A model generated the notes under the pieces. That model ran no database searches. It worked only from the letters and a program-made list of their open reading frames with translations, and was not told the origin of the DNA. This document shows, in pieces, positions 19,015-25,162 of a stretch of DNA of 64,000 nt (position 1 is the stretch's first letter; each line of letters starts with the position of its first letter). A program made the position numbers and the translations under genes. Source of the stretch: a bacterium (GTDB lineage: Bacteria; Patescibacteriota; Minisyncoccia; Phycocordibacterales; JBBTRF01); NCBI GenBank assembly GCA_037130265.1, contig JBAXTI010000001.1:98092-162091 (forward strand). The letters run 5' to 3'.

Positions 19015-21306
19015 ATGGCAGAACGTCCTAAGGCCCCAGAATCATTGACGACGAAATTTAACGCGGTAAACAACTCAGAACAGCTCTGCGCTGCTTTAGA
19101 CGCGATTCCAGCCACGACAACTTTTTTGATCACCGACGTGCCACGTGGTCAGGATATTGCACCAGGTGACAAGGGGGCGGTTATTAAATTGGTACAGCAA
19201 CTTTTTGAATTTGCCGATGCCTCCACGATGCGTACCGATTCGGATATTACTGGCCGAACTTCTTTCCTCGAACAGTTAATTAAGGAAAGCGTCATCGAAG
19301 ATGGTGAAGAAGCACTCAGTCTCATAAAAGCAATTCAACGAGCGATGCTTAGTGAATTTCCGGAGTATGGAGATGGAGCAGTGTCTGGACAGCCAACTTC
19401 TCCGACCCCAGGCGTACCGCAGCCGACTCCAGGCGAAGTCCTGGTTTTGCCAGCGGCATTTGAATTCAATGATGTGGCAAGGGACGCTCTGGGGGCTTTG
19501 GGTTGGCCAGTAGAAATGATTGATCGATTGACTCCTGAAAAAGCCGAGAAGATATTGAAAGAACAAAAGCCTTATGTTGTTTTGAAAAAGGTGCCGGCAG
19601 CTCCTAAGGTGGCGCCGACTGTTCCACCCCAACCCACTCCAAAAGCACGTCCCTCGGCTCAAAAACCAGCCGCACCTAGTGCGCCAGCCGTTCTACTGAC
19701 ACCGAAAGGTCAGGCAGCTGCTGATCTTTCGAGACTTTTGCCTAAAAAGCCAGAAGTTGTTGTTGCGGCTGCGGCTACATCTGCGACAGGCGCGCCTGCG
19801 GCCCCTGGCATTGAAACTATTGCGACCGTCTTTGACAGCCCGGAATTTCGCGCGTTCATCGCGAAAACACCGAATGCTCAGGAACTTATGTTGAGGCAGG
19901 ACATGGCCGAGATCGGTTTGTATAAAAAAGCTTTTGAAATAAAAGACAAGTTGGCCACTGACCTGTATGTGCTTGCCAACGGCGCAATCAAGGGCGACTT
20001 CCTTCTTGATTTTGAGAACTCCGCTTCGAATCTGCCAAAAAACGGCAAAGCGGAATTTCAGAAGTATGTAGATGCTGAGGCGCTCGAGCGACCAGAACAG
20101 CTGTTGAATCTCGCCACTCAGCTCGAGACACGACAGGTTTTAGAGAAAAATATCGGTACTGCAAAGGCTGAGTTTGAGCGTCTTGGTGGGAAAGATCTCT
20201 TTGATAAGGCAGAACGTGAGGCTGCTGAAATGAAGCAGCACCTTGAGCGCGCTCACGAGAGCACTCGCCGCGACTCGTTGGTGGGATATGTGCCACACGG
20301 TCTGCATCTCGCTTACCTGAGGTTGTCACATTGGGTGTATGAGCGGTGGGCCGGATGGGAGGGGCAGACCGAAGCTACAGTGAAAGCGGATTTTGAACAG
20401 CAGCGAAAGGATTTCTTGATTAAACACCCGGAAGCCACGCTCACGCCATCAGAAAGATCTGATCTAAACAAGATTACTCAGAATGAAATCGTGAAGCTTG
20501 CTGGCCTCAAAGAGCATCAAAAATTAGGGGAGAGAATGGTGGAGGTTTCGGAGTGGGGTGTATCCCGTGAGAAATTGAAGGGGGGCAGCGTTAAGCTCGG
20601 TCTCGGCAGTCTCACTAGCTATAGTCCGTCGTGGTGGACTGCACATCCTGATATTGCCCGTGAGTTAGACGCGGTGAACGGTCGGCTTGCTGATATTCGT
20701 CAGAGGAAGCAGACGATCGAGCAGGCAGAAAAAAATCTTGCGGACATCACTGCAAGCTTTGAGACGATCCGCACTTCGGTATATGCTGAATTGCCACCGA
20801 CTATTGCATTGGTTCGATATGCCCAGGTCCAGATCAAAAATACCCTCACTTCCTTTACGGCGGATACGGCAGTGGAGGATCTGCAGAGAATTTACGATTA
20901 CGCCATCTTCCTCGGCGAGAATCAGCGTCAGAGCTCTGATGTTGGAAAAAATACAGGCAAGAGTGCTTTTGCTCTAATGAATACCGCTGAGGTCCGTGTT
21001 GCTGAGAACAAAATCCATGAAGCCATCGTCGCCCAATGGGGGAGGCAGGTACTCGACGTTTTTGCAAAGACTAATTTGAATAAGAAGGGTGCAGGTGCCG
21101 AAATGGAAAAGACGATCAAGGCACTATTGAAGAAGGAGGCGATCGGACAGTACAGAAATGAGGACGAAAAGATCGCTGTCGTGAAAGCTCTTCTTGTTGA
21201 GGCTTTCAAAAAAATCGATCCGGCTAAGGGCGATGGTCAGGAGCGGCGTTTGGTACTCATGGGTGTGATGATTAATTGCGGTCTGTTGAAGCCAGGTGAA
21301 AAATAA
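19015..21306 (+). CDS. Hypothetical 763-aa protein with Pro/Ala-rich linkers and a long predicted helical/coiled region
   Basis: Extended -10 (TGcTACAAT) upstream; linkers PTSPTPGVPQPTPGE and APKVAPTVPPQPTPKARPSAQKPAAPSAPA; no NTPase or other known motifs. Confidence 0.65.
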   Translation: MAERPKAPESLTTKFNAVNNSEQLCAALDAIPATTTFLITDVPRGQDIAPGDKGAVIKLVQQLFEFADASTMRTDSDITGRTSFLEQLIKESVIEDGEEALSLIKAIQRAMLSEFPEYGDGAVSGQPTSPTPGVPQPTPGEVLVLPAAFEFNDVARDALGALGWPVEMIDRLTPEKAEKILKEQKPYVVLKKVPAAPKVAPTVPPQPTPKARPSAQKPAAPSAPAVLLTPKGQAAADLSRLLPKKPEVVVAAAATSATGAPAAPGIETIATVFDSPEFRAFIAKTPNAQELMLRQDMAEIGLYKKAFEIKDKLATDLYVLANGAIKGDFLLDFENSASNLPKNGKAEFQKYVDAEALERPEQLLNLATQLETRQVLEKNIGTAKAEFERLGGKDLFDKAEREAAEMKQHLERAHESTRRDSLVGYVPHGLHLAYLRLSHWVYERWAGWEGQTEATVKADFEQQRKDFLIKHPEATLTPSERSDLNKITQNEIVKLAGLKEHQKLGERMVEVSEWGVSREKLKGGSVKLGLGSLTSYSPSWWTAHPDIARELDAVNGRLADIRQRKQTIEQAEKNLADITASFETIRTSVYAELPPTIALVRYAQVQIKNTLTSFTADTAVEDLQRIYDYAIFLGENQRQSSDVGKNTGKSAFALMNTAEVRVAENKIHEAIVAQWGRQVLDVFAKTNLNKKGAGAEMEKTIKALLKKEAIGQYRNEDEKIAVVKALLVEAFKKIDPAKGDGQERRLVLMGVMINCGLLKPGEK

Positions 21307-21315
21307 CCACATAAT

Positions 21316-21684
21316 ATGGCACCAAGAAAGAACAATTCAAGCGTCCCGTCAAAGGTTTTTGCGAAGCGTTCCGCTGGTACGGGTCGTGTTGGTGTTGCGA
21401 AAAAAGCCGACTTTTCGAAGCTTTCCGAACTCGTCGAAAAGCGCGACATGGTTGGGGCGCAGGCACTCATCGATGATTTGATGAAAAAGAAGCTCACCGA
21501 GGCTGAAAAGGCGCGGATTCATATGGATATGCTCTCGACCTATCTCGAAGTGTCGAACGAGCTCAACAAGCACTATCTCGCGGAGCTTGAGGATGTGGTG
21601 GCTTTCATGAAAGAGTTGAAAAAGGAGGAAAAGGTGGTCTCTGAGGAGCTTGCTTTGGCAAAGGTGCGTGCGAAGCTTGGCTAG
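21316..21684 (+). CDS. Hypothetical 122-aa alpha-helical protein
   Basis: 10 nt after the previous stop; charged helical composition; no homology recognised. Confidence 0.5.
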   Translation: MAPRKNNSSVPSKVFAKRSAGTGRVGVAKKADFSKLSELVEKRDMVGAQALIDDLMKKKLTEAEKARIHMDMLSTYLEVSNELNKHYLAELEDVVAFMKELKKEEKVVSEELALAKVRAKLG

Positions 21685-21745
21685 AAATGTGGTTGGTGTT
21701 TGCTGAGCGGTTGGTGGCAGGTGAGGCTCGGTATATAATACAGAC

Positions 21746-24502
21746 ATGAATCCCGGTCCTGAAGCGTTGCACACCCCTGAGCAAGAGCTCGCTTTTTTGC
21801 GTGAGCAGGTGTCGCAGAAGGAGCGCGAGCTTCGCGAGCGCGGGGAGGCGCAGCCCCTGCAAGAGCGGGTGATGAAGGAAAAGCTTGTCGAATACCAGGG
21901 GCTTCCGACTGAAAAGGTGCTCGCCCCAGATCATCGTCTCACTCCGGCAGCGTCTGAGGCGATCGTGCTGAATATTGCTCCCGAAGCACATGACGAAAAG
22001 ATGGCGGAGCTCCTCGCTGTCCTTCAAAAGCATGGTTTGAAAAACGCCCTCGATGTCGTTGAAAAGTTGAAAAATCCGCACCTCGAGGACGATTTTCATC
22101 GCTTTGTAATCCAATACATCAAGGCCGGCCATCGCGTTGATCAAATGAATCCAAAAGAAGCGATTTCCAAGGCGTTGAAAATGACATTGTACGAGATCGC
22201 ACTTCCAGAGCGTGACGGTGAAGCGCCAGAAAAGTCGCTCAAGGAGCTCGTGTCTTCGATGGAGCAGTTTTACTCCGGTATGTCTTCCGTCGCCGATGAT
22301 GACGACACTTCTGCGCACTACTTCACTATTGAGCTTGCTGTTTCCAATTATAGTGACGAATTCGTATTTTATATGGCGGTGCCGGATACGAAGCGAGATT
22401 TGTTTGAGAAGCAGATTTTGGGTATTTTTCATAACGCACGCATCACTGAAAAGAATGACGACTACAACATCTTCTCTGAGAAGGGGGTCGTGGCTGGCTC
22501 GGCGATAGGGTTGGACAAGAAGCCAGCACTGCCGATAAAAATGTATGACCAGTTTGATCACGATCCACTCAATGTTATTCTGAACACATTTTCAAAGATC
22601 AAGCGCGACGGCGAGGGCGCGGCACTTCAGATAGTGTGCATGCCGGTAAAAGACGACTTTTATTTGAAGCGATATCGACGAGCCATCGAACGTATCGAGA
22701 AGGGAGTGAAGACAAAAGACGCGATCGACTTTCCTGACACTTTTTTCGACCACTTTAGCCACATTTTCAAGGGTTCAACTGCGCCAAAAAAGCCAAAGGA
22801 AGGCGAAAAATCAGACATCCGTGTGGATGATGCGGCGATTGAGGAGATCAAGCGAAAGCTCGAAAGTCCGACCATGCTCACCAATGTCCGTCTGATGGTG
22901 TCAGCTGATACCGACACCGCGGCAGAGCGTATTTTGAGCGACATGGAGTCGGCGTTCAATCAATTCCAAAACACACAAGGTAATCGCTTCACTTTCGAGC
23001 GCATGAAGAAGGGTAGATTGCAGAAATTTGTCGATGCGTTCGCGTATCGTCTGTATGACGAGGATACGAAATTGGCATTGAGTCTTCGTGAGCTCACTAC
23101 GGTGATGCATTTACCGGCGACCGTCTTGAAATCGGCGCCGCAACTAAAGATTTCTAAGGCAGGTACCGCACCTGCGCCGCTTGATTTGCCGAAGGGAGGT
23201 ATCTTGCTGGGCGTGAATGAATTCCGCAACATGAAGACGGATATCCACATGACTCCGGAAGACCGCCTTCGCCACTTCTATGTTATTGGTCAGACTGGTA
23301 CTGGTAAGACGAGTTTGTTGAAGAATATGATCGTGCAGGATATCAAAAATGGCGACGGTGTCTGCTTCATCGATCCGCATGGCAGCGATATTCAGGATAT
23401 TCTCGCGAAGATTCCGAAGGAGCGCTACGAAGACGTTATCTATTTCGATCCGGCATACACCGAGCGACCGATGGGTTTGAACATGCTCCAGTACGATCCT
23501 CGCTTCCCAGAGCAGAAGACCTTTGTGGTCAATGAAATGCTCTCTATCTTCAACAAGCTCTTCGATATGAAGACGGCGGGTGGTCCGATGTTTGAGCAGT
23601 ATTTTCGTAATGCCGTGCTTTTGACTATCGACGATCCGTCTTCTGGCGGGACGTTGCTCGATGTGTCACGTGTGTTGTCGTCGAAGATTTTCCGCGAGCA
23701 AAAATTGCTGAAATGTACCAATCCAGTAGTGACCCAATTCTGGAGAGAGGTGGCGGAGAAGGCGGGTGGGGAGTCGTCTTTGGCAAATATCGTGCCGTAT
23801 GTGGTGAGCAAGTTTGATACATTTTTGAGTAACGACATCATGCGGCCGGTGATCGCACAGGAGAAGTCGACCTTCAATTTCCGTGAGATCATGGATACCA
23901 AGAAGATTTTGTTGGTGAATTTGTCGAAGGGTCGCTTGGGCGATATCAATGCCAATTTGATCGGCCTTATTTTGGTGGGCAAGATTTTGATGGCCGCTTT
24001 GTCACGCGCGGATTCGCTCAATGGGCAGGCAGGAGCGCCGCAGATGCCGCCATTCTATCTGTATATTGATGAGTTCCAGAATGTGACCACCGATTCGATC
24101 TCGGTTATCCTGTCTGAGGCACGAAAGTACAAGCTCAGTTTGAATATTGCACACCAATTCATCGCGCAGCTCCAAGAGGGGATTAAAAATTCTGTGTTTG
24201 GCAACGTCGGATCGATCGCGGCGTTCCGCGTTGGCGCTGAAGATGCGGAGTATTTGGAGAAGCAGTTTGCGCCGGTATTTACGGCCAAGGACAGCATGAA
24301 TGTCGACAATTATCAGGCATACGTGAAGCTGTTGGCTGGTGGCCGGCCGGTGAAGCCGTTCAGCATGCAACTCGTCGCACCGCAACCCGGCCGGCCGGAT
24401 CAGATAGAAAACCTCAAGCAGCTTTCGTACATGAAATTCGGCCGCAATAAGGCCGATGTCGAAGCCGAGATTTTATTAAAGTATCAGAAAAAGAACGCAT
24501 AA
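21746..24502 (+). CDS. P-loop ATPase of the HerA/FtsK-VirB4/VirD4 (DUF87-type) superfamily with an about 480-aa acidic N-terminal extension and no TM segments
   Basis: Walker A GQTGTGKT, FIDPHG motif, Walker B FYLYIDEFQNV, SLNIAHQ motif. Confidence 0.75.
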   Translation: MNPGPEALHTPEQELAFLREQVSQKERELRERGEAQPLQERVMKEKLVEYQGLPTEKVLAPDHRLTPAASEAIVLNIAPEAHDEKMAELLAVLQKHGLKNALDVVEKLKNPHLEDDFHRFVIQYIKAGHRVDQMNPKEAISKALKMTLYEIALPERDGEAPEKSLKELVSSMEQFYSGMSSVADDDDTSAHYFTIELAVSNYSDEFVFYMAVPDTKRDLFEKQILGIFHNARITEKNDDYNIFSEKGVVAGSAIGLDKKPALPIKMYDQFDHDPLNVILNTFSKIKRDGEGAALQIVCMPVKDDFYLKRYRRAIERIEKGVKTKDAIDFPDTFFDHFSHIFKGSTAPKKPKEGEKSDIRVDDAAIEEIKRKLESPTMLTNVRLMVSADTDTAAERILSDMESAFNQFQNTQGNRFTFERMKKGRLQKFVDAFAYRLYDEDTKLALSLRELTTVMHLPATVLKSAPQLKISKAGTAPAPLDLPKGGILLGVNEFRNMKTDIHMTPEDRLRHFYVIGQTGTGKTSLLKNMIVQDIKNGDGVCFIDPHGSDIQDILAKIPKERYEDVIYFDPAYTERPMGLNMLQYDPRFPEQKTFVVNEMLSIFNKLFDMKTAGGPMFEQYFRNAVLLTIDDPSSGGTLLDVSRVLSSKIFREQKLLKCTNPVVTQFWREVAEKAGGESSLANIVPYVVSKFDTFLSNDIMRPVIAQEKSTFNFREIMDTKKILLVNLSKGRLGDINANLIGLILVGKILMAALSRADSLNGQAGAPQMPPFYLYIDEFQNVTTDSISVILSEARKYKLSLNIAHQFIAQLQEGIKNSVFGNVGSIAAFRVGAEDAEYLEKQFAPVFTAKDSMNVDNYQAYVKLLAGGRPVKPFSMQLVAPQPGRPDQIENLKQLSYMKFGRNKADVEAEILLKYQKKNA

Positions 24503-24538: not shown

Positions 24539-25162
24539 ATGCCACACACCAACATTCAAAAATACAAATACGAACGCACTTTGGTGGTTATCAAGCCTGA
24601 CGGCATCCAACGCGCTCTCATCGGTGAAATCATCCAGCGATATGAACGCACTGGATTGAAAATGACTGGCCTCAAGATGCTCGTCCCAAAGCCGGATTTT
24701 ATCGAGAAACACTACACGCTCGACCCAGAGTGGCGTCGTCTGACGGGGGAGAAGAATATCAAGGGGTACGAGGCGAAGGGGTTGGTCCATCCGCACAAGG
24801 ATGACCCTCTCAAGGTGACTGAGATCATTCTCCAGAAGCTCAAGAAATACCTATCGAGCGGGCCGGTCATCGCGATGGTGTGGCAGGGTGCGCATGCCGT
24901 GCAGATCGTGCGCAAGCTCACTGGTAGCACTGAACCATTGATGTCTGATGTCGGTACGATTCGCGGCGACTTCGTGTTGGATTCGTACAAGATCTCAGAC
25001 GATGACACACGGGCCGTGCGCAACCTCGTCCATTCGTCTGGATCGGTGAAAGAGGCAGAAGACGAAATTGCTCATTGGTTCTCGCAGGACGAAATTATCA
25101 CCTACAAAACGGTGCAGGAACGCATTCTTTACGACGTGAATCTTGACGGCATCCTCGACTAG
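24539..25162 (+). CDS. ndk: Nucleoside diphosphate kinase (with insertions)
   Basis: ERTLVVIKPDG, active-site region NLVHSSGS. Confidence 0.85.
   Translation: MPHTNIQKYKYERTLVVIKPDGIQRALIGEIIQRYERTGLKMTGLKMLVPKPDFIEKHYTLDPEWRRLTGEKNIKGYEAKGLVHPHKDDPLKVTEIILQKLKKYLSSGPVIAMVWQGAHAVQIVRKLTGSTEPLMSDVGTIRGDFVLDSYKISDDDTRAVRNLVHSSGSVKEAEDEIAHWFSQDEIITYKTVQERILYDVNLDGILD

Follow-up and report, generated by a model that had tools for sequence, protein, structure and literature searches.

A conserved patescibacterial ATPase with a coupling-protein-type motor and a predicted VirB4-like N-terminal domain, encoded outside secretion loci

The coupling proteins of type IV secretion systems (VirD4, TrwB, TraD, DotL and Cag-beta) have in common a RecA-fold nucleotide-binding domain carrying an all-alpha insertion, which is the substrate-adapting part of these proteins, and they are usually anchored by two transmembrane (TM) helices; TraJ of pIP501 is a coupling protein without TM helices. 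In several cases, among them Cag-beta with CagZ and DotL with its small adaptors, a small helical protein serves the motor. The VirB4 ATPases, represented here by TrwK of R388 and TraC of F, have no TM helix and consist of a soluble alpha/beta N-terminal domain, which docks the ATPase onto the membrane partners VirB3 and VirB8, followed by a C-terminal ATPase domain. Conjugation-type and coupling-protein ATPases are usually far less conserved than the protein described below. A large part of bacterial diversity belongs to the Patescibacteria and, to our knowledge, the majority of their conserved genes without an assigned function remain unstudied.

A survey of Patescibacteria counted 5,713 VirD4-type homologues in 2,918 genomes, found just 148 of these homologues close to virB4, and raised the possibility of exaptation (PMC12102498). 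The same study placed the canonical patescibacterial virB4 at another locus, near dnaA, and reported that in Southlakia the t4cp gene is not essential, whereas the other T4SS genes are. We have analysed a window, that is, the whole 64,000-nucleotide stretch of DNA introduced above, which encodes an ATPase of this superfamily, and the features on which the comparison rests are as follows.

19015-21306, plus strand: large partner p763, 763 aa, fast-evolving, with Pro-rich linkers (409-1093 aa in relatives)
21316-21684, plus strand: small helical partner p122, 122 aa (family usually 94-97 aa)
21734-21739, plus strand: TATAAT -10 box, 6 nt ahead of the ATG
21746-24502, plus strand: gene for the DUF8128/coupling-protein-type ATPase, 918 aa, ATG start; product 100% identical to NCBI MAG protein WCO79_00650
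21746-22150, plus strand: soluble helical N-module, residues 1-135, from the predicted model, invariant columns and the start point of the short forms
22151-23185, plus strand: DUF8128 core, residues 136-480, two alpha+beta subdomains with a predicted fold like the VirB4 N-terminal domain
23186-24499, plus strand: predicted RecA-fold ATPase, residues 481-918, of coupling-protein (VirD4/TraD/TrwB) sequence type
23288-23311, plus strand: Walker A, GQTGTGKT, residues 515-522, invariant in family alignments
23513-23896, plus strand: all-alpha insertion, residues 590-717, between Walker A and Walker B, helices in the predicted model
24053-24076, plus strand: Walker B, FYLYIDEF, residues 770-777, D775 and E776 invariant
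24539-25162, plus strand: nucleoside diphosphate kinase gene (ndk; Pfam NDK), 36 nt 3' of the ATPase gene

The open reading frame at 21746-24502 had been called exactly by the first-pass annotation, and it is a genuine gene, very strongly conserved in Patescibacteria ('CPR'). The number of homologues of its product, 1,858 clusters at 90% identity, is far beyond chance expectation, and the best 120 of these 1,858 clusters are all 904-976 aa long and align across 98-100% of the query; homologues of the N-terminal domain form 971 clusters at 50% identity, and all 575 matching stretches in species-representative genomes belong to Patescibacteria. Median identity was 53% for the whole ATPase and 67% for its C-terminal half, compared with 60% for SecY, 53% for L15, 50% for Map, 46% for NDK and 37% for Adk, at loci chosen by their likeness to the ATPase, a choice that may slightly favour it. 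Judged by these sequence identities, the ATPase is as conserved as ribosomal proteins and its motor half is more so than SecY. Widespread and vertically inherited, it is part of the core protein set of Paceibacteria-type Patescibacteria. A minus-strand ORF of 318 aa (21605-22561) that overlaps the gene was taken as spurious, since it is the plus-strand frame that is conserved.

The ATPase gene keeps a fixed place where the spc operon ends, in the order Map, ATPase, NDK; the same housekeeping neighbours recur throughout 87 related loci. An NDK gene lies within 6 kb on either side in 51 of the 87, usually next downstream or after one to three small ORFs, and ndk is probably co-transcribed with the ATPase gene. 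No match to a secretion or relaxase family was found within 6-10 kb on either side in the window and the annotated related loci, no VirB3-, VirB6- or VirB8-type gene in the inspected loci, and no nuclease, Sir2 or other effector gene adjoining the ATPase; the ATPase does not belong to a conjugation module. It had also been proposed that a promoter motif, tatataat, precedes the gene at about 21724. The motif lies instead at 21732-21739, but the proposal itself is backed by the orthologues, since in 70 of 84 (83%) a -10 box lies 4-10 nt ahead of the start codon, the usual distance being 6-8 nt, against 5-33% among operon-internal genes (33% for NDK genes). A -35 match was not found upstream of the ATPase gene. 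Because the -10 box just ahead of the ATG (6 nt in the window) has been kept in so large a proportion of orthologues, the sequences suggest that the gene has its own promoter, with a putative transcription start that would give a leaderless mRNA.

Pfam matches to the window protein are weak and confined to its C-terminal half: DUF87 (residues 509-548) scored above the Pfam cut-off, while TrwB_AAD_bind (501-547; 18.8 bits, cut-off 20.5) and TraG-D_C (769-828; 21.6 bits, cut-off 22) fell just under theirs, the last of these corresponding to the TraG-D_C-like tail that had been noted before. Relatives do pass, P0242 with 41.6 bits for TrwB_AAD_bind and P0260 with 45.2 bits for T4SS-DNA_transf, and relatives match TrwB_AAD_bind over profile positions 10-312. 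Among 32 diverse members, 25 match TrwB_AAD_bind and 25 match TraG-D_C (E<=1e-3), whereas none matches the VirB4-side families CagE_TrbE_VirB, TraC_F_IV or P-loop_TraG. On these families the controls part cleanly into coupling proteins (TrwB, TraD) and VirB4 proteins (TrwK, TraC), the latter two matching the VirB4 families strongly (R388 sequences from NC_028464). Likewise, hhalign gave a probability of 94% for TrwB and 7.7% for TrwK, and the significant PDB relatives by sequence were TrwB and DotL only. By sequence type, then, the ATPase half is of the coupling-protein and not the VirB4 kind. Structural comparison did not tell HerA, VirD4 and VirB4 apart for the C-terminal half (fold-level scores of 23.5 for HerA, 22.2 for TrwB, 22.2 for the VirB4 C-domain and 21.4 for DotL), and FtsK scored below all three; Cag-beta with its small helical regulator CagZ was among the structural neighbours. 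The all-alpha insertion lies where coupling proteins have their all-alpha domain and, unlike the latter, is nearly invariant in this family (conservation 0.82-0.92 per 30-residue block). With both Walker motifs intact, residues 481-918 are predicted to be a catalytically intact RecA-fold motor. The earlier description of an N-terminal region of about 480 aa followed by a VirD4/HerA-superfamily P-loop motor thus agrees with what we find, with Walker A at 515-522 and Walker B at 771-777 (770-777 as listed).

That N-terminal region had been regarded as a novel hydrophilic, acidic extension without TM helices. The absence of TM helices stands: in a Kyte-Doolittle scan no 19-residue window of residues 1-480 exceeded 1.6, with controls behaving as expected (2.48 for TrwB and 3.22 for TraD, which are membrane-anchored; 1.25 for TrwK and 1.5 for TraC, which are soluble), and the maximum ahead of Walker A stayed below 1.5 in the window protein as in each of 135 long-form homologues. 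The sole hydrophobic stretch of the protein (residues 734-752) forms a helix buried in the ATPase core. The charge is indeed negative but only mildly so (net charge -12, pI 5.7; family median of the charge -12), and the DDDD run, present at 184-187, falls in a variable loop without being conserved. Novelty does not stand, as the region folds into a conserved domain for which Pfam already has an entry, PF26449/DUF8128. The precomputed assignment is found on P0001, whose sequence matches the window protein at 100% identity, and on all of the best 120 of the 1,858 homologous clusters; the boundaries used here were placed from conservation and short-form relatives. Our own Pfam and NCBIfam scans, whose model set excluded DUF8128, gave no match to residues 1-480. 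The Pfam entry is that of a domain of unknown function, and no mention of it was found in the literature searched.

The structure model of the N-terminal half is confident, and the full-length model had TrwK as its top Foldseek match, aligned across about 900 columns. In the model residues 136-480 have the fold of a VirB4 N-terminal domain. Searching the PDB by sequence and by profile with the N-domain gave no link to VirB4, nor did Pfam scans or hhalign relate it to VirB4 families, so that the homology rests on predicted structure. The first-pass annotation had named cryptic TM helices, a HAS-barrel or a known VirB4 N-domain as grounds for revising its view; neither of the first two was found, and the predicted structure shows the third as a likeness of fold. 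As the N-terminal region is a soluble, folded alpha/beta domain, its layout together with the ATPase, again with no TM helix, is the standard VirB4 layout and in that respect is not the unusual architecture that had been claimed. What is unusual is that a VirB4-like N-domain is joined to a coupling-type motor, in a core chromosomal gene outside secretion loci. Coupling proteins, for their part, lack the VirB4-like domain of about 345 aa and the helical module of about 135 aa that precede the motor here. Short-form relatives start at about query residue 135, and in 17 of 24 short-form representatives one TM helix stands at the N-terminus directly ahead of DUF8128, at their own residues ~3-30, where the long forms carry the helical module. 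Since the shorter relatives carry one TM helix in place of this module, the lack of an anchor looks clade-specific from the sequences compared. The TM-anchored relatives adjoin an FtsQ-like POTRA gene and ScpA/ScpB.

Immediately upstream in the window are genes for two proteins, p122 and p763, that lack TM helices and matched no Pfam, NCBIfam or PADLOC family. The small partner adjoins the ATPase in at least 11 of the 87 related loci, its clusters having been joined by jackhmmer and hhalign, and the large partner adjoins the ATPase and small partner in a subset of genomes; partners of this kind, without TM helix or known domain, stand beside the ATPase in about 11-20 of the 87 loci, and the trio recurs in two gene orders. 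The large partner of the window is 48% identical to L004_1093, large-partner clusters c36 and c70 are related (hhalign probability 93.5%), and a database search with a minimal large-partner relative as query returned seven homologues only, all unannotated. In other loci the large-partner position is filled by different large ORFs, unrelated and reaching 1645 aa in length. Neither jackhmmer nor hhalign tied the c24, c43 and c25 neighbours, or the genes beside the TM-anchored forms, to the partner clusters. A further protein, p502, likewise without a Pfam, NCBIfam or PADLOC family, was rejected as a member of the module because it has no counterpart in any related locus. An anchorless motor with a small helical protein encoded beside it resembles, by description only, Cag-beta/CagZ, DotL with its adaptors and pIP501 TraJ; unlike the accessory proteins of coupling-protein complexes, the partners here are missing from many loci.

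Our current working hypothesis, towards which we lean with modest confidence, is that the ATPase is a mosaic core protein of the VirB4/VirD4 superfamily, combining a coupling-type motor, a VirB4-like N-domain and a helical module, with a housekeeping role outside any conjugation module. The most likely reading is that of a docking translocase motor recruited for housekeeping; that the ATPase docks on other components, as had been suggested, is a reasonable mechanistic guess. By analogy with its structural relatives the ATPase would assemble into a ring, its N-terminal half may attach to partner proteins instead of inserting into the membrane, and ATP would then drive the movement or recruitment of a polymer substrate, either DNA or unfolded protein. 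Expression would be from the gene's own leaderless promoter, probably together with ndk, in keeping with a putative conserved housekeeping role. A bolder form of this hypothesis, possible but in our view doubtful, is that DUF8128 ATPases are a third deep VirB4/VirD4 branch, either a surviving VirB4-to-VirD4 intermediate or an ancient fusion, that became fixed in Paceibacteria as an essential, T4SS-independent housekeeping translocase, part of an undescribed CPR machine.

The coupling-protein signature of the motor could also mean that the ATPase is the coupling protein of the patescibacterial T4SS encoded near dnaA, delivering to the VirB4-powered channel with its VirB4-like N-domain in place of TM docking. 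Such genes often lie far from virB4, patescibacterial homologues have been counted as such (PMC12102498), and relatives are anchored by one TM helix. We nevertheless consider this rather unlikely, given that so few of the counted homologues lie near virB4 and that the Southlakia t4cp is dispensable when other T4SS genes are not, that no relaxase, mating-pair or other secretion gene is nearby and the 87 loci are housekeeping in character, that conservation is far above what is generally known of conjugation-type ATPases, and that the domain expected to adapt to substrates is nearly invariant. The recurrence of the trio in two gene orders, the fast evolution and variable length of the large protein (409 to 1093 aa, with other ORFs up to 1645 aa) beside an almost invariant ATPase, and Cag-beta/CagZ among the structural neighbours would fit a module in which, by analogy, the large neighbour is a substrate and the helical neighbour of about 95 aa an adaptor or chaperone, recruited by the ATPase; VirE2/VirE1/VirD4 and Cag-beta/CagZ are the known parallels. 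Such a module is improbable as a general explanation, however, as the partners occur in a minority of loci, many genomes having nothing between Map, ATPase and NDK; moreover, the small partner is not consistently acidic across relatives and a secretion channel was not found in the inspected loci.

An equally improbable role is that of a DNA pump, acting in FtsK-like chromosome segregation or division, or in DNA uptake feeding nucleotide salvage. Weak NCBIfam matches to the archaeal DNA-import ATPases CedB and CedD, the FtsQ-like and ScpA/ScpB neighbours of the TM-anchored relatives, housekeeping-level conservation and the conserved linkage to ndk and adk are consistent with it, but adk linkage carries little information because the spc operon ordinarily includes Adk. 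Against it, the protein has neither the gamma (KOPS-binding, winged-helix) domain nor the four-TM N-terminus of FtsK/SpoIIIE, its likeness to the FtsK Pfam family is limited to the P-loop, FtsK ranks below VirD4, VirB4 and HerA at fold level, and TM7x, of the same radiation, is reported to have ftsK. As for a HerA-like helicase of a DNA-repair or anti-phage defence system, DUF87 passes its cut-off, PADLOC gave weak matches to mad8, HerA and DndH, and a relative on a Bradyrhizobium plasmid (33% identity in the motor) is found among CHAT and TPR genes. The N-terminus of that relative is unrelated, however, and the N-domain here is alpha+beta without a HAS-barrel, did not retrieve HerA in searches and has no NurA-type partner or adjoining effector; these points, with a fixed core position and ribosomal-protein-level conservation unlike those of defence genes, make such a role highly improbable.

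The working hypothesis of a housekeeping mosaic protein matters in that one of the best-conserved proteins of this locus belongs to a secretion/DNA-translocation superfamily without a recognizable secretion context, and its role could reveal a translocation process central to ultra-small, host-dependent cells. The family could also be a surviving record of the divergence of coupling proteins and VirB4. In addition, the 'T4CP homologues' counted in PMC12102498 can now be refined, members of the DUF8128 family having a VirB4-like N-domain, as predicted, and one or no TM helix. Finally, across 96 homologues the invariant residues of module 1-135 include P79, E80, H82, D83, H112, D116 and F117, and the pattern of H82, D83, H112 and D116 raises the idea of a candidate HD-type metal site.

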